Shown here: positions 10,265 through 61,465 of the stretch, piece after piece
Numbering within the stretch: position 1 is the stretch's first letter
Layout: every line of letters begins with the position of its first letter
Assembly (NCBI GenBank): GCA_963767115.1
Contig: CAVYCR010000012.1
Span: 16,598-80,597 of the forward strand
Direction: 5' to 3'
DNA length: 64,000 bases
Origin: Candidatus Kaiserbacteria bacterium
Lineage (GTDB): Bacteria > Patescibacteriota > Minisyncoccia > Phycocordibacterales > UBA2100
Notes under the pieces: model-generated
Database searches by the model: none
What the model was told of the DNA's origin: nothing
What the model saw: the letters and a program-made list of their open reading frames with translations, nothing else
Program-made: the position numbers and the translations under genes

Positions 10265-10609
10265 TTATACGATGGCGAGATTGGCGACACCTACTTTGTA
10301 AATGTCCGAAAACGGGGACGGTACAGCCCCCTTTAAAGACTCAGCTGATTGCGTGGCGCGCGACCACATCGTTTCGTATTCCTCATCAACTTCCTGATTC
10401 AGGATCGCGTCAACTTGCTGCGGTCGAAAGCCTTTTTGAAGTTTCTTGGCAGCCTCAAGGTATCCGATCACAGCTTCCTGAAGCTCAGCCTCGACAACGC
10501 GCGGGTCGTCCCCTTCGACGACGATGTTGAATTCCAAGGCAACGCCGAACCACGCATCATCTTCCCTGAAAATCATCCACCGATATGTCCCGGACGAGGT
10601 AGTGTTCAT
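10265..10609 (-). CDS. HicB-like / UPF0150-fold small protein (tentative)
   Basis: Start at ATG 10609 (MNTTSSGTYRWMIFREDDAWFGVALEFNIVVEGDDPRVVEAELQEAVIGYLE…). The 'W.a.…l.…v.G.…eeA.…l.eai…l' pattern is typical of HicB-type antitoxin N-domains. Confidence 0.4.
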   Translation of the reverse strand: MNTTSSGTYRWMIFREDDAWFGVALEFNIVVEGDDPRVVEAELQEAVIGYLEAAKKLQKGFRPQQVDAILNQEVDEEYETMWSRATQSAESLKGAVPSPFSDIYKVGVANLAIV

Positions 10610-10692
10610 AAAAGTCACTGTATCATTTGAAATACTGACTGACAAACGATGATCCCGCGATGAAAATCGGAGTGACACGTCTCTATAATAAA

Positions 10693-11259
10693 CTAACTAG
10701 AAGGTATTGAACGACCTTCGATATATCTATTTTCGATCTGGTTAACCAATTCTGCGTATGGAGTACTACGAATAATCTGAAACCCTTTCTCCTCAAACGA
10801 TTTAAAACTTTCAGGAAGAATGTTAATGAGTCGGACAGCGTAATCGCTTTCCGGGAAGTCAGAATGTGTCAGTTTTCCAAGTCTTAGTAAATACCATGCA
10901 GCTATAAATAAGGAGCAGGGGTATTTCTTACTCTTTACGATGTAATCAGTAATCTCCTCTCGCAATTTACCTTCTATCATTAGAGCGAGAACTTGATCGC
11001 ATTGCGGAATAAGTTGAGATTCTCTTATTACAACGCCAGGCTTATGTCCTTGCTCACTAAGCCAAACAATAAAGGAAACATAATCAAAAGACGGATCAGG
11101 AAACGAGTAGTCATCTACCATTACCACGAGAGACTCGTTTGATCCTCGCACATCATTCAATTGTTTGATAGAAAGTTCGTGTTCTTCACTAATCTTAGAA
11201 TTTGTATAGATATGAGCATATTCAATGGAAACATCTTTCATAGAATATTTTTGTTGCAA
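10693..11259 (-). CDS. hypothetical protein in an AT-rich island
   Basis: 188-aa ORF in an uninterrupted frame. Local GC is roughly 35-40% by hand count, against about 60% in neighbours. No family recognised. Confidence 0.5.
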   Translation of the reverse strand: MQQKYSMKDVSIEYAHIYTNSKISEEHELSIKQLNDVRGSNESLVVMVDDYSFPDPSFDYVSFIVWLSEQGHKPGVVIRESQLIPQCDQVLALMIEGKLREEITDYIVKSKKYPCSLFIAAWYLLRLGKLTHSDFPESDYAVRLINILPESFKSFEEKGFQIIRSTPYAELVNQIENRYIEGRSIPSS

Positions 11260-29547: not shown

Positions 29548-30334
29548 ATAGTGATGTCGGACATCGCTATTTATTGTATTTGGAATTGGATGATACAATA
29601 GTGTGTAATGGGGGTCGGGGTCTACCATGCTCTGAATCGCGGCGTCGACAAACGTCAGACTTTTATGTGTGAAATAGATTATGTGCGTTTCGTGCATGAT
29701 CTCTACGAATTTAACGACGTACATCCAGCAACAAACACATGGTATGAATTCAAAAATAGTGATGTCCGACATCCCTATATCGTGCGCGAACGGCAACCCA
29801 TCGTGCAGATTCATGCGTGGTCGCTTATGGAAAACCACTACCACTTGCTCCTCTCAGAAATCCGCGAAGGTGGCATTACGTCATTCTTACGAAAAATTAA
29901 TACCGGGTATACGAATTATTTCAATGACAAATACGAACGAAGCGGCGTATTGTTCCAAGGCAAGACGAAGAAGATTCTCATCCATGAGGAAGCTCATTTC
30001 TTACATATGCCGCATTACATACACTTGAATCCGCTCGATTATCTGGAAGGCGCAAGCGATTGGCGCTCATATGCCCTAGAAGACCCAGTTGCCGCGCTCG
30101 AGTATCTTTCTACCTATCGTTGGAGCAGCTATCTCGATTACTGCAACATGGATAATTTTCCTTCTATCATAGAGAAGGGTCTGTATTCGGATATATTTCC
30201 AGACTACGCCCCAACGATCAAATCCTACTTACAATCTTTAGATAGACCTTCAATCGATCTCGAACCAGTGACTTTGGAATAAAAATCAATACTATGGCTT
30301 ATTTCTTATATATTAGTGATGTCCGACATCACTA
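29548..30334 (+). mobile_element. RAYT/IS200-like Y1-transposase cassette 1 with flanking REP-type hairpins
   Basis: Hairpins ATAGTGATGTCgGACATCGCTAT (29548-29570) and TAGTGATGTCcGACATCACTA (30314-30334) flank the transposase in opposite polarity. A third copy (29756-29778) lies inside the CDS. Confidence 0.65.
29608..30282 (+). CDS. HUH/Y1 tyrosine transposase (REP-associated, IS200-like fold)
   Basis: 224 aa. YHALNRGVDKRQTF…, HUH motif MENHYHLLL, and catalytic-Tyr helix HMPHYIHLNP. Confidence 0.7.
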   Translation: MGVGVYHALNRGVDKRQTFMCEIDYVRFVHDLYEFNDVHPATNTWYEFKNSDVRHPYIVRERQPIVQIHAWSLMENHYHLLLSEIREGGITSFLRKINTGYTNYFNDKYERSGVLFQGKTKKILIHEEAHFLHMPHYIHLNPLDYLEGASDWRSYALEDPVAALEYLSTYRWSSYLDYCNMDNFPSIIEKGLYSDIFPDYAPTIKSYLQSLDRPSIDLEPVTLE

Positions 30335-30344
30335 TTTTTGATCA

Positions 30345-32856
<2,512 letters not shown>

Positions 32857-34491: not shown

Positions 34492-35622
34492 ATGACAGAC
34501 GAAACAAAGGCTCCCGAAATGGAGCTCGATAACGAGACAGTGGTCTCGTCAGACATTACTACCAAGGAAGGCCCGATGGCCGAACTCCTCAAGAACGCTG
34601 GCAAGCCGCCTGCGCTCGACGACGTGGTCGAAGGACCGGTCGTTGCTGTGGGCCGCGCGCGCGTCTTCATCGACCTGCATCCGTACGGCACCGGCATCAT
34701 CTACGGCCGCGAATACCTCTCGGCGCGCGAGACGTTGAAAAATGTAAACATCGGCGACGTCGTGACGGCGAAGGTCGTCGGCACCGACAACGCCGAAGGC
34801 TACGTCGAGCTCTCGCTGCGCGAGGCGCGCCAAGCCCTGATGTGGAGCGAAGCGGAAGTCGGCACTGCAGAAGAAGACTGTCTTCGAACTCGAGATCAGC
34901 GACGCCAACAAGGGCGGACTCATCATCAACTGGAACGGCATCCAAGGATTCTTGCCGGCATCGCAACTCGGCACAGCGCACTATCCGCGCGTCGCTGACG
35001 GCGACAAGGACAAGATCTTCGTCGAGCTCAAGCGCATGATCGGCACCAAGATCGAGGTCATGATCATCACCGCGAATCCCGAAGGAGCAGAAGCTGATCT
35101 TCAGCGAGAAGGGCGCGGCCCCGACCGAGCGCGGATCGCTCGTGGAGAAATACCATGTCGGCGATACGATCGACGGCATCGTCACCGGCGCGACGGAGTT
35201 CGGCGTCTTCGTGAAGCTCGAGGAAGGCCTCGAGGGCTTGGTGCACATCTCGGAGATGGACTGGGCGCTCGTCGAAAACCCGAAGACCCGCTACAAAGGC
35301 GGCGACGCGGTGAAGGTCAAGGTCATCGAGATCAAGGACGACAAGATCTCACTCTCGATCAAGGCGCTCTTGGAAGATCCGTGGAAATCCGCTGCCGCGA
35401 AGTACAAGAAGGACCAGCGCGTCGAGGCAGTCGTCATCAAGTACAACAAGCACGGCGCACTCGCCTCTATCGAGGAAGGTGTCGCGGGCTTGGTGCACAT
35501 CTCGGAGTTCGGCAAGCGAAGACGAGCTGCGCGCGAAGCTCGAGCTCGGCAAGGTGTATCCGTTCACGATCACCTTCTTCGAGCCGAAAGAACGCCGCAT
35601 GACTCTCAAACCCATCGCCTGA
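34492..35622 (+). pseudogene. rpsA: 30S ribosomal protein S1 (short, multi-S1-domain) with three apparent frameshifts
   Basis: S1-domain segments lie in three frames. Segments: …GPVVAVGRARVFIDL…; …LIINWNGIQGFLPASQLG…; …GDTIDGIVTGATEFGVFVKLEEGLEGLVHISEM…GVAGLVHISEFG; the tail …ELGKVYPFTITFFEPKERRMTLKPIA ends at TGA 35620-35622. Breaks are near 34860, 35090 and 35517. Net length is a multiple of 3. Confidence 0.85.
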
Positions 35623-36421
35623 GGTTAAACCTCGACAAATATAAGCCACATTTCCACCCGTCGAGGTTAAACCTCGACGGGTTTTGGCTTTTTGCGGTAT
35701 ACTATTTACATGGCGCGAGGGGTCACGCTAGCTCAGGGAGAGTTTTATCATATTTACAACCGCGGAACTGACAGGCGGCGAGTCTTTGAAACACATCATG
35801 ATTACGATCGTTTTTTAGCGCTTCTTTTCATTTGCAATCAGGCGCATCCGATTCAGAATCAAATTCGCGAACTGACATCAGATATATTTATTCTCGCAAG
35901 AAACACGGACACTATTGTTGATATAACCGCGTATTGTTTGATGCCCAATCATTTTCATATTGTAGTCAGGGAAAAGACGGACGGAGGTATTAGCAAATTC
36001 ATGCAAAAGGTCACGACCGGCTATACCATGTACTTCAATAAGAAATACGAGCGCACTGGAAGCTTGTTCGAGGGCACCTTCAAAGCACAACACGCGGCCG
36101 ACGACGAATATCTAAGGTACCTGCTCACCTATGTTCATTTGAATCCAGTAAAACTTTGGGATCCAGACTGGAAAACAAACGGGATTAGAGACCTAGTCAA
36201 GACCATGCAGGATTTGGACGAGTACAAATACTCGAGTTACAAGGAATACGTTGGGAAGTTTCGTCCTGAGAGTTCCATATTAAATAGGACTGTTCTGCCC
36301 GAATACTTTAATTTACCAAGAGATTTCAAGTCCGAGCTTATGGATTGGCTTACAATCCGAGGTTAAACCTCGACAACGTTAAGCCATTTTTTGGCATTTG
36401 AGGTTTAACCTCGACAAATAT
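35621..36421 (+). mobile_element. RAYT/IS200-like Y1-transposase cassette 2, bounded by 22-bp direct repeats and paired REP palindromes
   Basis: GAGGTTAAACCTCGACAAATAT (35621-35642) and GAGGTTTAACCTCGACAAATAT (36400-36421) bound the cassette. Further GAGGTTAAACCTCGAC copies lie at 35660-35678 and 36359-36374. The cassette sits exactly between the rpsA stop and the pth stop. Confidence 0.7.
35710..36366 (+). CDS. HUH/Y1 tyrosine transposase (REP-associated, IS200-like fold), paralog 2
   Basis: Start at ATG 35710 (MARGVTLAQGEFYHIYNRGTDRRRVF…). HUH motif MPNHFHIVV; Tyr helix YLLTYVHLNP. The stop codon lies inside a REP copy. Confidence 0.7.
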   Translation: MARGVTLAQGEFYHIYNRGTDRRRVFETHHDYDRFLALLFICNQAHPIQNQIRELTSDIFILARNTDTIVDITAYCLMPNHFHIVVREKTDGGISKFMQKVTTGYTMYFNKKYERTGSLFEGTFKAQHAADDEYLRYLLTYVHLNPVKLWDPDWKTNGIRDLVKTMQDLDEYKYSSYKEYVGKFRPESSILNRTVLPEYFNLPRDFKSELMDWLTIRG

Positions 36422-37012
36422 TCAATTAAACGCATTCATCGCGATCTGCGGACCTTTGGTGACGATCAACCCGATCGCTTCGCCCGCTTTTTTGAAGACT
36501 TTTTTCAATTCATCGCCCTCGGAGACTTTGAAGCGCGCGAGAATGAATTCCGCCACCTCATCTTCGCCCTTGGGCTTCTTGAGCGTGCCAGCAGGTGTCG
36601 ACGGCGAGATGCCGATGCGCACGCGGGTAAACTTTTTTGTCTTCAAGGCGGTCATGATCGACTCGACACCCTTGTGTCCCCCACTTCCACGGTCAAACGA
36701 GAGCTTGAACGTGCCTACAGAGAGGTCGAGATCGTCATACACGACGATCAGGCGTTCTGCGGCCTTGACTGACTTCACATATTTGCCTACCGCAGCGCCC
36801 GATTTGTTCATAAAGGTGTCGGGCAAGACGAGAGCTGCAAGAGTTTTGTCGATTGCGCCCTTCGCGACTGTCGCTTTTGCATTTTTGTCTTCCTTCCAAT
36901 CACTGAAGTTATGACTTCTTGCAAAATGTTCGAGCATCATGCGACCCGTGTTGTGCCGCGTGCCCACGTATTCCTCTCCAGGATTCCCGAGACCGACGAT
37001 TACCCATGTCAT
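36422..37012 (-). CDS. pth: peptidyl-tRNA hydrolase
   Basis: Start at ATG 37012 (MTWVIVGLGNPGEEYVGTRHNTGRMM…). Also …LPDTFMNKSG… and …DDLDLSVGTFKL…GGHKG…. Confidence 0.9.
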   Translation of the reverse strand: MTWVIVGLGNPGEEYVGTRHNTGRMMLEHFARSHNFSDWKEDKNAKATVAKGAIDKTLAALVLPDTFMNKSGAAVGKYVKSVKAAERLIVVYDDLDLSVGTFKLSFDRGSGGHKGVESIMTALKTKKFTRVRIGISPSTPAGTLKKPKGEDEVAEFILARFKVSEGDELKKVFKKAGEAIGLIVTKGPQIAMNAFN

Positions 37013-37167
37013 ATGCAAACATACTACCTCAAATTTCAAATCTCAAAACTAGTTGTACGCAGTTTTGAATTTTATTTTTGAGATTTGAGATTTAAATTTT
37101 GAGATTTTACGGTGGAACACCGCAAATGCTTTGCGTCAACGGCATCGTTGATATACAATGCGCGCAC

Positions 37168-37830
37168 ATGAATGACTCTGAGATGCACAGTGATTCATCA
37201 TCGGATGCTCTTGAAGCTCATTCTTCTCTCGCTCAAACTAAACGTGCTACTGCACAAGAAAAAATTCCCGCCAAGCAATCCGACCGCACACTTTTTGCTT
37301 CAGTCGCCGTCGCACTCGCGCTCGCATTCCTGATTCGCTTCTTCGTCGCGGCGCCCTACGTCGTCTCCGGCACTTCGATGGAGCCAAATTTCCAAAATTG
37401 GAATTATTTGATCGTCGATCGGCTCACGTATGACTTCATCGGCCCCGCGCGCGGCGACGTGATAGTACTCGACCTTCCGCAAGACACGAGCCGCGCCTTG
37501 ATCAAGCGTGTCATCGGGCTCCCAGGCGACACAGTCGTGCTCTCGGGCACCGATCCGACTGTCACGATCTACAACAAAGCGCATCCACAGGGCTTCACGC
37601 TCAACGAGCCGTATATTTCTCCCGCAAATTATGGCGGCACCACCAATACGAGCTATACGCTCGGACCAAACCAGTACTTCGTGCTCGGCGACAACCGCGT
37701 CGTCTCTGCCGACTCGCGCATCTGGGGCATCTTGCCGCGCTCCGACATCGTCGGCCGCGTCCTGTTGCGCCTCTATCCCTTCAACGAGATCTCGATCCTT
37801 CCGGAGGAAGCGCGTTACTCAGACGATTAA
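37168..37830 (+). CDS. lepB: signal peptidase I
   Basis: Start chosen at ATG 37168. TM helix, catalytic Ser box VSGTSMEPN, …RGDVIV…IKRVIGLPGD…, and box E FVLGDNRVVSADSR. Confidence 0.8.
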   Translation: MNDSEMHSDSSSDALEAHSSLAQTKRATAQEKIPAKQSDRTLFASVAVALALAFLIRFFVAAPYVVSGTSMEPNFQNWNYLIVDRLTYDFIGPARGDVIVLDLPQDTSRALIKRVIGLPGDTVVLSGTDPTVTIYNKAHPQGFTLNEPYISPANYGGTTNTSYTLGPNQYFVLGDNRVVSADSRIWGILPRSDIVGRVLLRLYPFNEISILPEEARYSDD

Positions 37831-37866
37831 ACTTCTCGTACGTTTATCAATATAAGTATTGAAGCG

Positions 37867-39066
37867 ATGATACGTCTCAAAGATACAACTTATCAGAAGA
37901 CAAGCGACCTACTTGAGGACGCCGTGCGGATTGCGGAGTATTACGGCTTCGCACCGCTTGAGGAGATCCCGCGCGCACCGCGCGAAGGCAAGCGCGAGGG
38001 AGGCGCCACAGAACCGGATATCAGCTTCGCGCGGCGCGATGAGCGTGCGCTCGCCGCAAGTGCACGACGCACACTCATGTGTATGCGCCCGGCACATGGG
38101 ACACTGCTCGCGTGGCGTCTGAGCAACCCGGGTAGTTCAGTACCTGCAGCATCTTTTGAATTGCACGTAGTAGGCAGTAGCTCAATGATCGCAGAAGCAC
38201 TTCTCATCGTCGTTACGCAAGCGATCGCACGCGGCGCCGGCATTGCCGAGCCCCTGCTCTCCATCAACAACATCGGCGGCGCCGAATCCTCCGGCCGCTA
38301 CGTGCGCGACGTCGGCACTTACTTGCGCAAACACATCGATTCAATCAGCCCGACGCTGCGAGAGCGCGCCTCGAGCGACCCCGTCGGCACGCTCGTGCAG
38401 CTGATCGAGAAGGGGCATCCGGCCGTACCGCGCGCACCGCAAGCAATGGAATATCTCACTGAGGAGGAGCGGCGGCGCTTCTGGGAATTGCTCGAATATC
38501 TCGAGACAGCCAATATCCCGTACGAGCTCAACCCTCAAATTCTCGGCAGCCGCGATTGTTGGTCGCACACACTCTACGAGATCGGCTCCGTCGACCAGGA
38601 GACCGGCACGCGCGTGCCCTTCGCACTCGGCGGCCGCTACGACCCGCTTGCGAGTCGCTTCAAGAAAGGCCCTGAGAAAAGCGCGATGATCGCTATCTCG
38701 ATCGAGGCACGCGGCAAGGTGCGTGCGCGCCGAAGCAGCATCGGTGTACCACTTATCTATTTCACCCAGCTCGGCCCCGAAGCACGACGACGAGCGATCC
38801 CTGTCCTTGAGGTGCTGCGCCAAGCCTCCATCTCAGTGCATCACGGACTTTGGTACGATCGTATGGGCGACCAGATGCTCGAGGCGCGCAATCTCGGCAC
38901 TCCTTATATACTCATCCTCGGCCATAAAGAAGCAGTAGAAGGCACCGTGATCGTGCGCGAAGTCGCCACCAACTCACAACAAGCAGTTCCCGTCGCAGAG
39001 CTTCCTGGCTATCTCAAACGCCGACGAGTCTTTCTCAATGCGCCGCTACAGGCCTCGCGGGGATAA
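37867..39066 (+). CDS. HisRS-like class II aaRS paralog (HisZ-like; motif 2 degenerate)
   Basis: 399 aa, collinear with histidyl-tRNA synthetase from the insertion domain onward (…INNIGG…SGRYVRD…, motif-3-like ALGGRYDPLA, C-terminal anticodon-binding-like …PYILILGHKEAVEGTVIVREV…). The motif-2 region reads LLAWRLSNPGSSVPAASFELH. Confidence 0.5.
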   Translation: MIRLKDTTYQKTSDLLEDAVRIAEYYGFAPLEEIPRAPREGKREGGATEPDISFARRDERALAASARRTLMCMRPAHGTLLAWRLSNPGSSVPAASFELHVVGSSSMIAEALLIVVTQAIARGAGIAEPLLSINNIGGAESSGRYVRDVGTYLRKHIDSISPTLRERASSDPVGTLVQLIEKGHPAVPRAPQAMEYLTEEERRRFWELLEYLETANIPYELNPQILGSRDCWSHTLYEIGSVDQETGTRVPFALGGRYDPLASRFKKGPEKSAMIAISIEARGKVRARRSSIGVPLIYFTQLGPEARRRAIPVLEVLRQASISVHHGLWYDRMGDQMLEARNLGTPYILILGHKEAVEGTVIVREVATNSQQAVPVAELPGYLKRRRVFLNAPLQASRG

Positions 39067-39116
39067 ATGACTAGGCCTTGCCCCTTTATGAAGGGCGTGC
39101 TACACTTCTCCCACCT

Positions 39117-39428
39117 ATGATAAATGCAGAAGTGCAGAAGAGCGGCAGCGAAAATTCCCTTTCGACGATCCGCAAATTCTCCCGCCGTGTGCAGGGCACC
39201 GGCCTTGTGAAGACCACACGCGCCAACCGCTACTACGTCCGCCCCGGCTCCAAGATCGTCAAGAAGAAGCGCGCACTTAAGCTCATTAAGCGCCGCGAGG
39301 ATTACCGCCAGCAGATCAAGGAGGGCAAGATCACGGAGACCCCCAAGCGCGGATATCAAAACCAACAGCAGCAGCCTCGTGAGACCGGTCCGGCTAAGTT
39401 TGGCGAAAGTACTCCGATCGCCCGCTAA
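39117..39428 (+). CDS. rpsU: 30S ribosomal protein S21 (with extended basic/Gln-rich tail)
   Basis: Start at ATG 39117 (MINAEVQKSGSENSLSTIRKFSRRVQGTGLVKTTRANRYYVRPGSKIVKKKRAL…), an S21-like pattern. Confidence 0.6.
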   Translation: MINAEVQKSGSENSLSTIRKFSRRVQGTGLVKTTRANRYYVRPGSKIVKKKRALKLIKRREDYRQQIKEGKITETPKRGYQNQQQQPRETGPAKFGESTPIAR

Positions 39429-45220: not shown

Positions 45221-45237
45221 CAGAGGTCAGACCTCTG
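45221..45237. repeat. REP-like palindrome CAGAGGTCAGACCTCTG (identical copy inside tsaD at 60523-60539)
   Basis: Perfect 8-bp stem. Same GAGGT-nnn-ACCTC design as the REP copies flanking transposase cassette 2. Confidence 0.6.
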
Positions 45238-58459: not shown

Positions 58460-60241
58460 TTATTCCTCATCCTTCAAGAACCCTCCCGCCTGTATGCTCC
58501 AAAGCTTCTGATAGAGCCCGTCTTCCTTGAGAAGCTCGGTGTGCGTGCCCTGCGCCGCGATCTTGCCTTCTTCGATAACGAGAATGCGGTCCATGTTCCT
58601 GATGGTCGAGAGACGGTGCGCGATCACGAGCGTCGTGCGGCCCTGCATGAGCGTGCGCAGAGAATCTTGAATGAATGATTCGGATTCGCTATCGAGGCTC
58701 GAGGTCGCTTCGTCCAAGACGAGGATCGGCGCGTTTTTAAGTATTGCGCGGGCGATAGCGACGCGCTGACGCTCGCCGCCCGAGAGCTTCACGCCGCGCT
58801 CACCGACGAAGGTGTTGTAGCCCTCGGGCAGCTGCGCGATGAATTCATGACAATGCGCTTTCTTGGCGGCTTCTATCACCTCTTCGTCGCTTGCATCGCG
58901 CCTGCCATAGCGGATGTTTTCTAAGAGAGAGCGGTGGAAAAGTATCGGCTCCTGCGGCACAAATGCGATCGCGTTGCGCAGACTTTCCTGCGTCACTTGA
59001 GCGATATTTTGCCCGTCGATCTCGATCGTACCACTCTTTACGTCGTAGAAACGAAGCAAGAGCCGCGTGATCGTCGATTTACCCGCACCAGAGTGCCCTA
59101 CTAAAGCGATCTTCTCGCCGCCCTGCACTGAGAGGTTGAAACCGGTAAGGATCGGGCGTTCGGGGTTGAAGAAGAAGCCGACGTCTTTGAAATCCACCCC
59201 TCCTTTGGGCACGACAAGTGCGGGAGCGTCTGGTATATCGTGTATCTCGTGCTCAAGGTCGAGGATCTCGACCATTTCCGTGGCATTGGCGAATGCATCA
59301 TAAAACCGACGCAATTGTTGCCCGACACTACCGCAGACATTGAACGTGCCGATGAGATACGTCTGGATCAGTACGAAATCACCGATCGTGAGCTGCCCGC
59401 GTTCCCAGAAGGCGAGCGCGCCAAAAAGCAGCACGACGTTGATACCGACCATGAAAAACGCTTGCGAGCCCCACATGTACTCTTCTGCATTCCACGAACG
59501 AACCGTCGAATCCTGCCATCGCTCGACAAAGCCCTTGAACAACGCGTATTCATAGGCGATGCCCGCAAACATCACGACGGTGTTTTGGTTTGAGATGGCG
59601 TCTGAGAGCGCGCCCACCATCGCACTGTCGTCGGCCGAACGCTTGACACGCAGCGGCTGGCGCAGCTTGGAGACATAGATCTGAAACCAGATGAAAAGTA
59701 CGACCCAGACCGCGAGTACGAAGCCGAGCAAGTGGTTGCTCAGAAAGAGAATGCCCACCGCGCCAATGACGAAGACAGCCGACGGCAAGAAAGTCTGGAA
59801 GAAGACATCGAAAATAGTTTCAAACGCGTCGGAGAATTTGGAGACGCGTCGCGTAAGCGTGCCGGCGAAATGCGACGTGAAGAAGAAATACGAGTGCCCG
59901 AGAAGGTATTGAAACGCGGTGAGATACAGATCCGGCATTACGGCCGTCTCGAGATCAATGGTGGCGAAAATCTGAAGGCGCAAAAATGCCCAAGCGACAA
60001 AAGACGCAAGCCCGATCAAAGCGATCACGATTACCAAATGATGATTGGTATCCGCGGAAGGAGTGCCGCTCGCGAGCGTATTGAAAAGATCACGCATATA
60101 AAGCGGGCTGATGAGGCTCGCTACCTGCGTACCGATCGTGCCAATGACGACGAGTATGCTTGCGATCGGGTGCTTGCCGACTTCACGCAAATACATGCGC
60201 AACACATTGAGGTCAGAAACTGCTGTCTTGTCTGTTGCCAT
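58460..60241 (-). CDS. ABC exporter, fused permease/ATPase (MsbA-like)
   Basis: 593 aa. Six-TM N-terminal domain, Walker A GHSGAGKST, signature LSGGERQR, Walker B ILVLDEATS. Confidence 0.85.
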   Translation of the reverse strand: MATDKTAVSDLNVLRMYLREVGKHPIASILVVIGTIGTQVASLISPLYMRDLFNTLASGTPSADTNHHLVIVIALIGLASFVAWAFLRLQIFATIDLETAVMPDLYLTAFQYLLGHSYFFFTSHFAGTLTRRVSKFSDAFETIFDVFFQTFLPSAVFVIGAVGILFLSNHLLGFVLAVWVVLFIWFQIYVSKLRQPLRVKRSADDSAMVGALSDAISNQNTVVMFAGIAYEYALFKGFVERWQDSTVRSWNAEEYMWGSQAFFMVGINVVLLFGALAFWERGQLTIGDFVLIQTYLIGTFNVCGSVGQQLRRFYDAFANATEMVEILDLEHEIHDIPDAPALVVPKGGVDFKDVGFFFNPERPILTGFNLSVQGGEKIALVGHSGAGKSTITRLLLRFYDVKSGTIEIDGQNIAQVTQESLRNAIAFVPQEPILFHRSLLENIRYGRRDASDEEVIEAAKKAHCHEFIAQLPEGYNTFVGERGVKLSGGERQRVAIARAILKNAPILVLDEATSSLDSESESFIQDSLRTLMQGRTTLVIAHRLSTIRNMDRILVIEEGKIAAQGTHTELLKEDGLYQKLWSIQAGGFLKDEE

Positions 60242-60286
60242 TTCCTCACTCTAGCGCACACTACGACTTCAAGCTATAACGATGAT

Positions 60287-61465
60287 ATGAAAGTACTTGG
60301 GATAGAGACGAGTTGCGACGAGACAGGGGTCTGCATAATCGACGCGCAGGGCAACTTCGGCGCGGATTTCTCATACCAAATACTCGGCAATGCGCTCTAC
60401 AGCCAGGTCGCCATACACGCGCCGTACGGCGGCGTCTTCCCCAACCTCGCCAAGCGCGAGCACGCCAAGAACCTCGTCCCGCTCATGAGCCAAGCGCTTG
60501 ATCAGGCAGGACTTCTCCGGCGCAGAGGTCAGACCTCTGCAGGCACGGAAGAAGAAGCGCGGTTGATAGTGCCGGAGATCCTAGCGCGCGAGCCCGAGCT
60601 GCTCGAGCAATGGGAAGTGTTTTTTAGAGAGTACGAGAAGCCCGACATCGACTGCATTGCGGTCACACACGGGCCGGGGCTCGAGCCTGCGCTCTGGGTC
60701 GGTGTGAACTTCGCTCGCTCGCTTGCGCTCAACTGGGGCGTGCCGCTCGTCGCAGTCAACCACATGGAAGGACACGTGGTGATGTCGATGATGCAGGATG
60801 ATCATCTTGGTGAATTTGAATTCCCTGTGCTTTCATTACTCATCTCCGGCGGCCACACCGAGCTCGTTTTGTCGCAAGGCTGGCTGCAGTACGAGCTTCT
60901 TGGTGCCACCCGCGACGACGCGGTCGGCGAGGCATTCGACAAAGTCGCGCGCCTGCTCGACCTTCCCTACCCCGGCGGCCCCGAGATCTCGCGCCTCGCG
61001 AAAGAAGCTCGAGAACTCGAGCAAGGCGAAACCTTGCTCAAATTCACGCCGCCGATGTTGCATAGTGGCGATTATGATTTCTCATTCTCGGGCCTCAAGA
61101 CTGAGGTGCGCAAATATGTCGAGCAACATGCACCACTTGCTGATGATATGAAAAAAGAAATTGCCTGCGCTTTCGAGAATGCTGTAGCCGAAGTGCTCGT
61201 AGAGAAAACCATGAAAGCAGGCGACGAGTTTGGCGCACAATCGATCCTCGTGGGCGGCGGCGTCTCTGCCAACACCTACATTCGCCATCGCCTCGCTGAA
61301 GCGATTCGTAAAGCCCCGGCCTTTACAAAATTATTGATCCCGCCGGCACAGCTCGCGACGGACAACGCCCTCATGATCGCGCTTGCCGGCTATTTCCATG
61401 CAATCAAAGGCGATCTCGCCGACCCCCAGACGCTCAAAGCAAACGGTAATTTACGTCTCGCATAG
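60287..61465 (+). CDS. tsaD: tRNA N6-adenosine threonylcarbamoyltransferase
   Basis: Start at ATG 60287 (MKVLGIETSCDETGVCII…). …VNHMEGHV… and …GGGVSAN… The upstream part of the 577-aa ORF is antisense to the ABC exporter. Confidence 0.85.
   Translation: MKVLGIETSCDETGVCIIDAQGNFGADFSYQILGNALYSQVAIHAPYGGVFPNLAKREHAKNLVPLMSQALDQAGLLRRRGQTSAGTEEEARLIVPEILAREPELLEQWEVFFREYEKPDIDCIAVTHGPGLEPALWVGVNFARSLALNWGVPLVAVNHMEGHVVMSMMQDDHLGEFEFPVLSLLISGGHTELVLSQGWLQYELLGATRDDAVGEAFDKVARLLDLPYPGGPEISRLAKEARELEQGETLLKFTPPMLHSGDYDFSFSGLKTEVRKYVEQHAPLADDMKKEIACAFENAVAEVLVEKTMKAGDEFGAQSILVGGGVSANTYIRHRLAEAIRKAPAFTKLLIPPAQLATDNALMIALAGYFHAIKGDLADPQTLKANGNLRLA

Follow-up and report, generated by a model that had tools for sequence, protein, structure and literature searches.

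A 64,000-nucleotide (nt) stretch of the genome of a Candidatus Kaiserbacteria bacterium (assembly GCA_963767115.1, contig CAVYCR010000012.1, positions 16,598-80,597 of the plus strand; hereafter the window, with positions counted from its first nucleotide) contains two genes for HUH/Y1 proteins, each bracketed by copies of a hairpin-forming palindrome of its own. A gene together with its hairpins is called a cassette here; cassette 1 lies between a methyltransferase gene and gyrA, and cassette 2 between rpsA and pth. We consider it fairly probable that both belong to a large Patescibacteria clade of class 2 HUH/Y1 single-strand endonuclease genes with an organisation like that of REPtrons and TIRtrons. 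The evidence lies in the family and fold of the proteins, the anatomy of the cassettes, the conservation and covariation of the hairpin throughout the family, the concerted evolution of its copies, the presence and absence of cassettes in relatives and their foreign base composition. Relatives comprised 80 metagenomic loci and several more that were fetched by exact protein; where one has to be singled out, it is given its L number.

Protein family and fold

The coding sequences (CDS) of the two genes, CDS1 and CDS2, are intact paralogues, 38% identical over 175 residues (BLASTP, E 2e-40), with the HUH and tyrosine motifs that a preliminary description of the window had read from them. CDS1 contains NHYH, LFQG, YIHLNP and WSSY; CDS2 contains NHFH, LFEG (FE, not FQ), YVHLNP and YSSY. 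In an alignment of 28 homologues, the HUH histidines (H81 and H83), the tyrosine of Y[IV]HLNP (Y141) and the serine pair of the tail are all invariant. The Pfam family Y1_Tnp (PF01797) matches CDS2 with 37.7 bits and CDS1 with 20.5 bits, slightly under the cutoff of 23 bits. The sole NCBIfam match is the model NF047646 for RAYT (tyrosine transposases associated with repetitive extragenic palindromes, or REPs), with 44.1 and 32.1 bits; the IS200 models of that collection gave no match to either protein at E ≤ 0.01.

A single-sequence search of the PDB gave no match and a profile was required, the top match of which is TnpA-REP of E. coli (4ER8), a structure of the protein bound to a REP hairpin. 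The AlphaFold model (pLDDT 83.8, pTM 0.85) predicts an RRM-like beta-sheet fold with the tyrosine helix present. Foldseek also ranks 4ER8 as the best PDB match of this model (E 4.9e-5, target TM 0.62), followed by 2A6O, 2XM3, 2EC2 and 2F4F, which are IS608, ISDra2 and IS200 TnpA structures. Pfam detects no second domain in CDS1 or CDS2, such as a C-terminal helix-turn-helix (HTH)-like domain (Bac_DnaA_C, HTH_23 or HTH_28).

In the classification of Quentin (2018; PMC6006769), class 2 TnpAY1 proteins have Y-x3-NP and class 1 proteins (IS200) have Y-x3-Q; by this motif, CDS1 and CDS2 therefore fall into class 2, the RAYT side, not class 1. Subclass 2.1 is characterised by NH[YF]H, FQ, Y[IV]HLNP and SS in the proximal tail, with a median length of 238 residues (PMC6006769), and corresponds to group 1 of Bertels and to the TIRYT proteins of Di Nocera 2013 (PMC6006769, PMC3733652). 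Inspection of the motifs, rather than the authors' hidden Markov models of the subclasses, would assign both proteins to subclass 2.1/TIRYT. Taken together, the data support both as RAYT-type HUH/Y1 proteins and not IS200 TnpA. The outcome that the preliminary description had set against this, clustering with multi-copy IS200 TnpA with canonical left and right ends, is not what the motifs, the NCBIfam matches and the structure matches point to.

Homologues of CDS2 number more than 4,130 at E ≤ 1e-5 in a word-indexed search; nearly all are unnamed or called 'transposase', and they come from Paceibacterota, Minisyncoccota, Yanofskybacteria and other Patescibacteria. An exhaustive search of 50%-identity clusters gave 448 at E ≤ 1e-30 and 7,010 at E ≤ 1e-10. 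A tblastn search of plasmids returned just distant 'transposase' matches of 24-33% identity.

Anatomy of the two cassettes

Cassette 2 spans 801 bp, which takes in 2 nt of the rpsA stop codon. Its features are:

35621-35642, plus strand: hairpin H1 (GAGGTTAAACCTCGAC) followed by AAATAT; outer left hairpin and left 22-bp direct repeat, overlapping the rpsA stop codon by 2 nt
35656-35682, plus strand: hairpin H2, inner left, a 12-bp stem (ACCCGTCGAGGTTAAACCTCGACGGGT) followed by TTTGGCTTTT; terminator-like for rpsA
35698-35703, plus strand: −10-like TATACT, 6 nt 5' of the CDS2 ATG
35710-36366, plus strand: CDS2, 218 residues, intact, class 2 (RAYT-type) HUH/Y1 protein with NHFH, YVHLNP and the tail motif YSSY
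35863-35886, plus strand: relic of an in-gene hairpin of CDS2, peptide IRELTSDI kept and palindrome lost
36359-36374, plus strand: hairpin H3, encoding the final codons of CDS2 (R, G, stop)
36400-36421, plus strand: hairpin H4 followed by AAATAT; right 22-bp direct repeat, abutting the pth stop codon

The type 2 palindrome, GAGGTTWAACCTCGAC, has plus-strand copies without mismatch at 35621, 35663, 36359 and 36400, the last with T as its central base. With up to two mismatches on both strands there are 7 matches versus 0.05 expected, and all of them lie in cassette 2. The rpsA TGA occupies 35620-35622 and the stop of pth, on the minus strand, 36422-36424. The 22-bp direct repeats are identical at 21 of 22 positions, and the left and right doublets, each taken as a whole, are direct repeats of one another (33 nt at 85% identity). 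Folded as single-stranded DNA, the doublets reach z-scores of −7.3 and −6.1 against shuffles, H3 and H4 pairing into one 15-bp REPIN-like stem. The stop codon of CDS2, TAA at 36364-36366, forms the centre of H3. H2 scores as an intrinsic terminator, and its 3' arm overlaps a −35-like TCGACG. An alternative TTG start is present at 35692.

Cassette 1 is built in a similar way, with single flanking hairpins and a further copy inside the gene:

29549-29569, plus strand: upstream hairpin TAGTGATGTCGGACATCGCTA with a T-rich tail, terminator-like
29591-29599, plus strand: extended −10-like TGATACAAT, 8 nt 5' of the CDS1 ATG, as read from the sequence
29608-30282, plus strand: CDS1, 224 residues, intact, paralogue of CDS2 with NHYH and YIHLNP
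29757-29777, plus strand: in-frame internal hairpin copy (TAGTGATGTCCGACATCCCTA), codons 50-57, encoding NSDVRHP
30314-30334, plus strand: downstream hairpin TAGTGATGTCCGACATCACTA followed by TTTTT, terminator-like

The type 1 palindrome, TAGTGATGTCSGACATCRCTA, is found at 29549 and 30314 and, as a third copy, at 29757 inside CDS1, giving 6 strand-matches versus 0 expected and none away from cassette 1. In single-stranded DNA folding, the flanking hairpins have z-scores of −4.7 and −4.5, and the internal copy a weak −1.5. Both flanking hairpins score as intrinsic terminators.

The preliminary description had given the doublets, the 22-bp repeats, the contacts with the rpsA and pth stops and the TAA within a hairpin of cassette 2, all of which are confirmed at their coordinates; it had also assigned each gene its own hairpin set, and each type is indeed confined to its own cassette in the 64 kb. 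Its label 'REP' implies dispersed copies; the confinement is an outcome that it had itself set against its claim, although one that a stretch of 64 kb is too short to make decisive. The hairpins that it described in opposite polarity around CDS1 are there, and their polarity depends on no more than the central base and one stem position. It had overlooked the in-frame hairpin inside CDS1 and the decayed relic in CDS2.

A conserved hairpin throughout the family

In about 70 of 83 loci, the long palindrome found 5' of the ATG of the Y1 gene recurs at its stop codon or across it. Counted by a strict pattern (AGG-N5-CCT plus at least 3 further base pairs), 58 of 85 loci have the hairpin upstream (median distance to the ATG 26 nt) and 56 at the stop codon (median +1); 46 loci have it at both ends and 19 have an additional internal copy. 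The upstream hairpin lies 10-40 nt 5' of the ATG. Inverted doublets that can be folded as a single long hairpin are frequent in the flanks of the family. The type 2 hairpin of the window, GAGGTT-W-AACCTC, is an ordinary member of this AGG class. The type 1 core, ATGTC-S-GACAT, is a variant that is found in L073 too; of the paralogues of CDS1 type, one in L048 has another type (CGTCGGACTTCGACG) and one in L091 a hairpin of the AGG class, so the ATGTC core is not a property of the whole CDS1 lineage.

The sequence of the outer stem varies between loci and its pairing is kept: over 63 distinct hairpins, 84.9% of the cells are paired versus 57% after shuffling. The covariation score is 0.708 versus 0.175, a value that none of 500 shuffles reaches, and controls with slid positions give 0.10-0.15. 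Columns 9 and 27, which took no part in the selection, are paired in 62 of the 63 sequences and use all four Watson-Crick types. Free variation of the stem with maintained pairing argues for a single-strand hairpin, and not a sequence-specific duplex operator, as the form that matters.

A TGnTAnAAT-like −10 box is located 5-9 nt 5' of the ATG in most loci, and its position suggests that family genes may have leaderless transcripts. The flanking hairpins are likely to have a predicted terminator role in addition to their main one; in L173, for instance, the upstream hairpin, just 3' of rpsA, is a 15-bp stem followed by TTTT.

Two diverged Y1 genes close together on one contig, each with a different hairpin, also occur in L048, L083 and L091:

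L083, 3-629 and 1527-2162: paralogous Y1 genes in tandem, the second bracketed by GTGCGAAGGGTGGCCCTTCGCAC at 1478 and 2220
L048, 9764-10513: paralogous Y1 gene
L091, 2520-3233: paralogous Y1 gene

Copies within the gene and concerted evolution

Hairpin copies inside the gene are a recurrent feature. Among the 85 cassettes, a scan of nt 110-230 of the CDS for stems of at least 6 bp found 35, of which about 27 were judged copies of the locus's own hairpin. The internal copies often share the outer stem of the flanking ones (L019, with a 16-bp stem, L031, L054, L082 and L091), and the peptides they encode track the hairpin sequence (LQGSTLL, IQGRTLK, REGRSFA, DIPIGEAYGNE and NSGKEPPYLS). In L091, the paralogue of CDS1 type has CTATGGAGGTTSAACCTCGATAT upstream, in the gene (encoding QPMEVEPRY) and downstream. 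Of the strict internal copies, 19 out of 20 are in one codon phase (xxA GGN NNN NCC Txx), within codons 48-66. In the AlphaFold model, this site falls in a loop of low confidence, which follows the first long helix and leads to the strand ahead of the HUH motif.

CDS2 appears to have once carried such a copy. Its relic reads att cgc gaa ctg aca tca gat ata, and the palindromic counterpart in L173 reads ttc cga ggt tta acc tcg gac gta (FRGLTSDV); compared with L173, pairing has gone mostly through synonymous changes, with most of the peptide retained.

Outer arms of the hairpin copies are 0.70 identical within a locus and 0.35 between loci, a difference that shows concerted evolution of the copies within a cassette.

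Presence, absence and base composition

The rpsA-pth junction is variable among relatives, and spacers without a Y1 gene, for which the preliminary description had suggested looking, do exist. In the closest relative (L170, pth 83% identical) the junction is a 70-nt spacer with an ordinary bidirectional terminator and no Y1 gene. It holds HIT and NUDIX genes in L171 (pth 75%), a HAD hydrolase gene in L176 (74%) and a 91-residue open reading frame (ORF) in L175 (73%). In L173/L174 (pth 71%), the junction has a Y1 gene positioned and oriented like CDS2, to which it is 58% identical, and a hairpin of the same type as in cassette 2 with compensated stem changes (TCCGAGG...CCTCGGA versus GTCGAGG...CCTCGAC). 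Two histories would fit this pattern: a long-resident cassette that was lost repeatedly, or a variable junction that was occupied more than once.

The methyltransferase-gyrA site of L002 contains a Y1 gene 55% identical to CDS2 and 37% to CDS1. The cassettes of L030 and L034 are 95% identical to each other; the two loci become homologous about 12 nt 5' of the upstream hairpin, with a syntenic right flank and unrelated left flanks. The family member P0098 has one context throughout 24 contigs. A near-identical second copy of a cassette was found neither in the window nor in any of the 85 loci.

Both cassettes have a guanine-plus-cytosine (GC) content of 0.43, below the 0.545 of the window and the roughly 0.60 of rpsA and gyrA, and are among the lowest 1-1.4% of 800-nt windows. 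Presence and absence in relatives and base composition indicate that the cassettes are accessory, and probably mobile over evolutionary time.

At L002, hairpins lie at 1015-1035, 1456-1478 and 2161-2178, the outermost of the flanking ones being a third one 440 nt further upstream; it encloses a 91-residue ORF without known function, so passenger genes may reside between hairpins.

Copies away from the genes

Relatives do have some copies of their locus-specific hairpin away from the gene, namely 9 in 455 kb of flanks of 38 related loci, or about 1 per 50 kb. Hairpins of the AGG class as a whole occur in the flanks of relatives at 0.059 per kb, where about 0.004 per kb are estimated by chance. 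The window has 4, with 0.2 expected (mean of window shuffles, per 64 kb, in line with that estimate), and 3 of them are orphans:

45221-45237, no strand assigned: orphan hairpin (CAGAGGTCAGACCTCTG), intergenic, no Y1 gene nearby
60522-60540, no strand assigned: orphan hairpin GCAGAGGTCAGACCTCTGC, sharing its 17-mer with the hairpin at 45221, in frame in tsaD, encoding RRGQTSA
61019-61039, no strand assigned: orphan hairpin GAGCAAGGCGAAACCTTGCTC, in frame in tsaD, encoding EQGETLL

Gene-less hairpin copies thus exist, in the window and in relatives, at a density far below that of classical REPs. The codon phase of the two tsaD copies agrees with that of the hairpins inside Y1 genes. The identity of tsaD is clear from Pfam (TsaD, 269 bits); the RRGQTSA hairpin falls in a stretch of about 40 residues that we take to be absent from E. 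coli TsaD. The listed ORF (59732-61465, 577 residues) resembles a read-through from an upstream gene into tsaD.

A scan of a genome collection for GAGGTTWAACCTCGACR gave 76 matches, mostly single and scattered among unrelated genomes, and a Y1 gene adjoins in L128 only. The fully palindromic form of type 2, GTCGAGGTTWAACCTCGAC, was found without a Y1 gene in the fetched stretch at 57-77 and 1419-1439 of L137, a 2.3-kb contig of a Paceibacterota metagenome-assembled genome (MAG; JAYVXX010000036.1), and likewise on L099, L121 and L167, three contigs of one Saccharibacteria MAG (CAZKKG01).

Proposed mechanism

Each gene has a predicted promoter of its own directly 5' of the ATG and, on either side, its cognate hairpin in the form of singlets or inverted doublets; many members of the family have one more copy in frame, in a surface loop ahead of the HUH motif. 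On this layout a working model can be built. The enzyme would recognise the single-stranded hairpin through its apical AGG-N5-CCT (ATGTC-S-GACAT in the lineage of cassette 1), and the catalytic tyrosine would cut and rejoin the DNA beside it. Local copying or replacement of hairpin units may keep the copies of a cassette, 3 to 5 in number, similar to one another. Now and then, orphan copies would be seeded at other places, in-frame sites of host genes among them, and a whole cassette would be moved or lost. In a secondary role, the flanking hairpins could terminate rpsA, the upstream gene and the Y1 gene.

We also entertain, as a speculative and rather doubtful extension, that the in-frame hairpin, instead of being a passive passenger, is part of a self-acting circuit and serves the enzyme as a site for cutting or binding the sequence that encodes it. 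The promoter and the first 55 or so codons might be excised or exchanged between the upstream and internal hairpins; in another possible form, binding to its own mRNA, or to a single-stranded DNA copy, might throttle expression. If true, enzyme and recognition site would be inseparable and co-evolving, a minimal self-referential replicator across much of the candidate phyla radiation (CPR), and the synonymous loss of the palindrome in CDS2 would be an escape from self-targeting.

Comparison with known systems

A REPtron reportedly consists of a RAYT or TnpA-REP gene flanked by REPs or REPINs, as for yafM in E. coli and in Pseudomonas (Nunvar 2010, Bertels & Rainey 2011, Ton-Hoang 2012). The arrangement of a gene flanked by cognate palindromes is found in the window and family-wide. 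The likeness extends to the class 2 HUH/Y1 protein with Y-x3-NP and 4ER8 as best fold match, to a low-copy gene with diverged paralogues, each with its own family of flanking hairpins in singlets and inverted doublets, and to the few gene-less copies, some of them inside host genes. The cassettes differ from REPtrons in lacking a GTAG or GTGG foot, the hairpins being near-perfect palindromes with an AGG-N5-CCT core; in having very few hairpin copies away from the gene, compared with tens to hundreds for classical REPs; in proteins of about 220 residues with a C-terminal helical extension that score below the NCBIfam RAYT cutoff; and in their host, which is a member of the Patescibacteria and not of the Proteobacteria. 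The RAYT arrangement claimed in the preliminary description is accordingly borne out in part: Y-x3-NP, the RAYT-only NCBIfam match and 4ER8 agree with it, and the sub-cutoff scores, the missing GTAG foot and the subclass 2.1 motifs do not. That two such pairs lie close together had been thought remarkable, but is ordinary for the family, with an average of 1.9 copies per genome at 49% identity in subclass 2.1 (PMC6006769) and the pairs in L048, L083 and L091.

With TIRtrons and their TIRYT proteins (PMC3733652, PMC6006769), the cassettes share the motif set NH[YF]H, FQ, Y[IV]HLNP and SS tail in a protein of just over 200 residues, about two diverged copies per genome, often no dispersed family in the genome, and private repeats that bracket the gene, some self-complementary and some overlapping the gene ends. 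The GGGGWSAS of most TIRs is, however, absent from the flanks here, and Pfam finds no HTH or DnaA_C-like C-terminal domain. REP-like structures were reported as not found for subclass 2.1 (PMC6006769); here, by contrast, a conserved hairpin accompanies almost all members. A copy in frame within the gene is also unreported for that subclass. Such insertions are described for TnpAY1 subclass 2.4 of Cyanobacteria and Bacteroidetes, in which REPs are inserted in frame in the tnpA-REP gene (PMC6006769); there, too, a cognate palindrome lies inside the gene of the enzyme, with the frame intact, in a predicted peripheral loop. The in-gene REPs of subclass 2.4 are GT[AG]G-tagged, long or double-foot and of variable length (PMC6006769), whereas here 19/20 copies occupy one homologous site ahead of the HUH motif and share a codon phase, and the subclass 2.4 motifs are NH[IFV]H, WQ and YIxNNP.

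IS200/IS605 elements resemble the cassettes in the HUH/Y1 fold, in subterminal hairpins that adjoin the gene and in a hairpin that doubles as a terminator, as in IS200. They differ in their class 1 motifs (DH[VI]H and Y-x3-Q, versus NH[FY]H and Y-x3-NP here), in being multi-copy and near-identical (the copies in the window are 38% identical), in ends that lie on one strand in fixed orientation (mixed here), in tnpB, which is missing here, and in having neither in-gene nor orphan hairpins. The cassettes are most simply filed with REPtrons and TIRtrons; they depart from RAYT in the strict sense in their scores below the NCBIfam cutoff, in the missing GTAG foot and, within the window, in hairpins that are not dispersed, and from IS200 elements in their defining features. 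The literature on RAYT, REPIN, IS200 or HUH together with Patescibacteria or CPR, of which our coverage was not exhaustive, gave no account of this arrangement. Compared with the accessible descriptions, the Patescibacteria hosts, an AGG-N5-CCT hairpin for a subclass 2.1-like protein, the homologous in-gene copy and the concerted evolution are apparently new.

Base composition, assembly and other repeats

An exact-protein look-up gave no record of CDS2, and the sole copy that could be retrieved is on an independent Logan contig, L001 (4.7 kb, run ERR11630394). L001 is 99.7% identical to the window over 4.1 kb and 100% identical over cassette 2; because of this identity, cassette 2 is not an assembly artefact. 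In the window, rpsA (34492-35622) and gyrA (30345-32856) are split into several reading frames, with both Y1 genes intact. L001 is without the extra base at 35510 and has rpsA in frame there; as it reads through, at least some of the rpsA and gyrA frameshifts look like indel errors of the window assembly and not pseudogenes. Eleven of the 12 differences between the window and L001 are in the last 290 nt of rpsA (35301-35586), and one, at 36584, is in the remaining 3.8 kb (35587-39366), in which all of cassette 2 lies. The boundary of this divergence, about 35 nt from the left end of cassette 2, could reflect strain recombination at the cassette or a chimeric contig. A third island of low GC (0.39-0.45), at 10265-11259, contains two hypothetical minus-strand ORFs of 137 and 188 residues; low GC likewise marks the window's first 1 kb, and the two are possibly other acquired DNA.

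Another repeat of the window is linked to tRNA genes:

1627, 19122, 19187, 25445, 57738 and 57868, plus strand: tRNA-linked repeat, consisting of GAGGCGGGGTCGCG, an imperfect hairpin and TAT-NN-GTGACC

Its apical stem differs and covaries between copies, and three sites follow tRNA genes (Tyr, Leu and Val) at a distance of about 100 nt. Rfam at gathering thresholds recognised tRNAs only and gave no match for the repeat, which is probably the abundant hairpin family of the preliminary description. It was considered as a dispersed partner of the Y1 genes and rejected: it flanks neither gene, the nearest copy being 4 kb off. Its end GGGGTCGC is loosely like the TIRYT motif GGGGWSAS.

Alternative explanations

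Several observations weigh against a REPtron- or TIRtron-like system. Both proteins score below the curated equivalog cutoff of the RAYT model, which is 80 bits. Outside the stems of the family loci there is no tag or cleavage motif, no position exceeding 0.25 bit, and with no conserved tag flanking the stems there is no GTAG foot. Left and right loops are in mixed orientation (21 inverted, 18 direct and 7 other), which fits no single fixed mechanism; a fixed left/right rule, with 21 inverted versus 18 direct, is ruled out. The hairpin types of both cassettes have no copy away from their genes in the window, and the locus-specific orphans of relatives remain far below classical REP densities. 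Several flanking hairpins resemble ordinary terminators, and the concerted evolution of the copies could be due to gene conversion rather than to the enzyme.

An ordinary autonomous IS200-like insertion sequence, with the hairpins as subterminal ends and a cassette of about 800 bp moving by single-strand peel-and-paste, would account for the practical confinement of the hairpins to both gene ends, the low GC and the Y1 fold. It would also suit the empty rpsA-pth junction of the closest relative, the different lineages at the same intergenic site and the homology breakpoint of L030/L034 at the foot of a hairpin. We nevertheless think it unlikely, given the class 2 motifs, the absence of an IS200 model match and of tnpB, the lack of a near-identical second copy in the window or the 85 loci and the single context of P0098 in 24 contigs; the mixed left/right orientation contrasts with the one-strand ends of IS200/IS605, and doublets, copies inside the gene and orphans without a gene are foreign to insertion sequences. 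A domesticated and immobile gene whose palindromes are regulatory only (terminators, insulators or autoregulatory operators) strikes us as quite improbable. Terminators need no identical ends, no AGG-N5-CCT core maintained in hundreds of lineages and no in-frame repeats in a CDS, so that a terminator role cannot be the whole account, even with H2 and both cassette 1 flanking hairpins terminator-like and the 15-bp stem and TTTT of L173 directly after rpsA. The upstream hairpin is where a −35 box or an operator is expected, but its freely varying and yet paired outer stem points to a hairpin structure, not a duplex operator. P0098, single-copy and in a stable context, would suit such a gene; presence and absence between close relatives, foreign GC and the orphans in tsaD would not. 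That the palindromes are due to chance or to faulty assembly is scarcely credible: rpsA and gyrA of the window do contain frameshifts, of which one or more are absent from the independent assembly, but the cassette is 100% identical in the Logan assembly, the palindrome counts are far above those of shuffles and the anatomy recurs in about 70 independent loci.

Implications for Patescibacteria

The 'transposase' genes of Patescibacteria include a very large clade, with more than 4,000 close homologues, whose DNA partner is seemingly undescribed; the published survey of the subclass found no associated palindromes (PMC6006769). The conserved core, the covarying stem and the in-gene copy make up a concrete and testable enzyme-substrate pair. 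As the hairpins mark the boundaries of the cassettes, they would help in annotating CPR genomes. The pair bears on how specificity changes, from an AGG core to an ATG core or the reverse, and on whether these systems reshape junctions such as rpsA-pth or add peptides to essential genes such as tsaD. It also bears on the persistence of RAYT-like systems in genomes that are extremely small and densely packed with genes.

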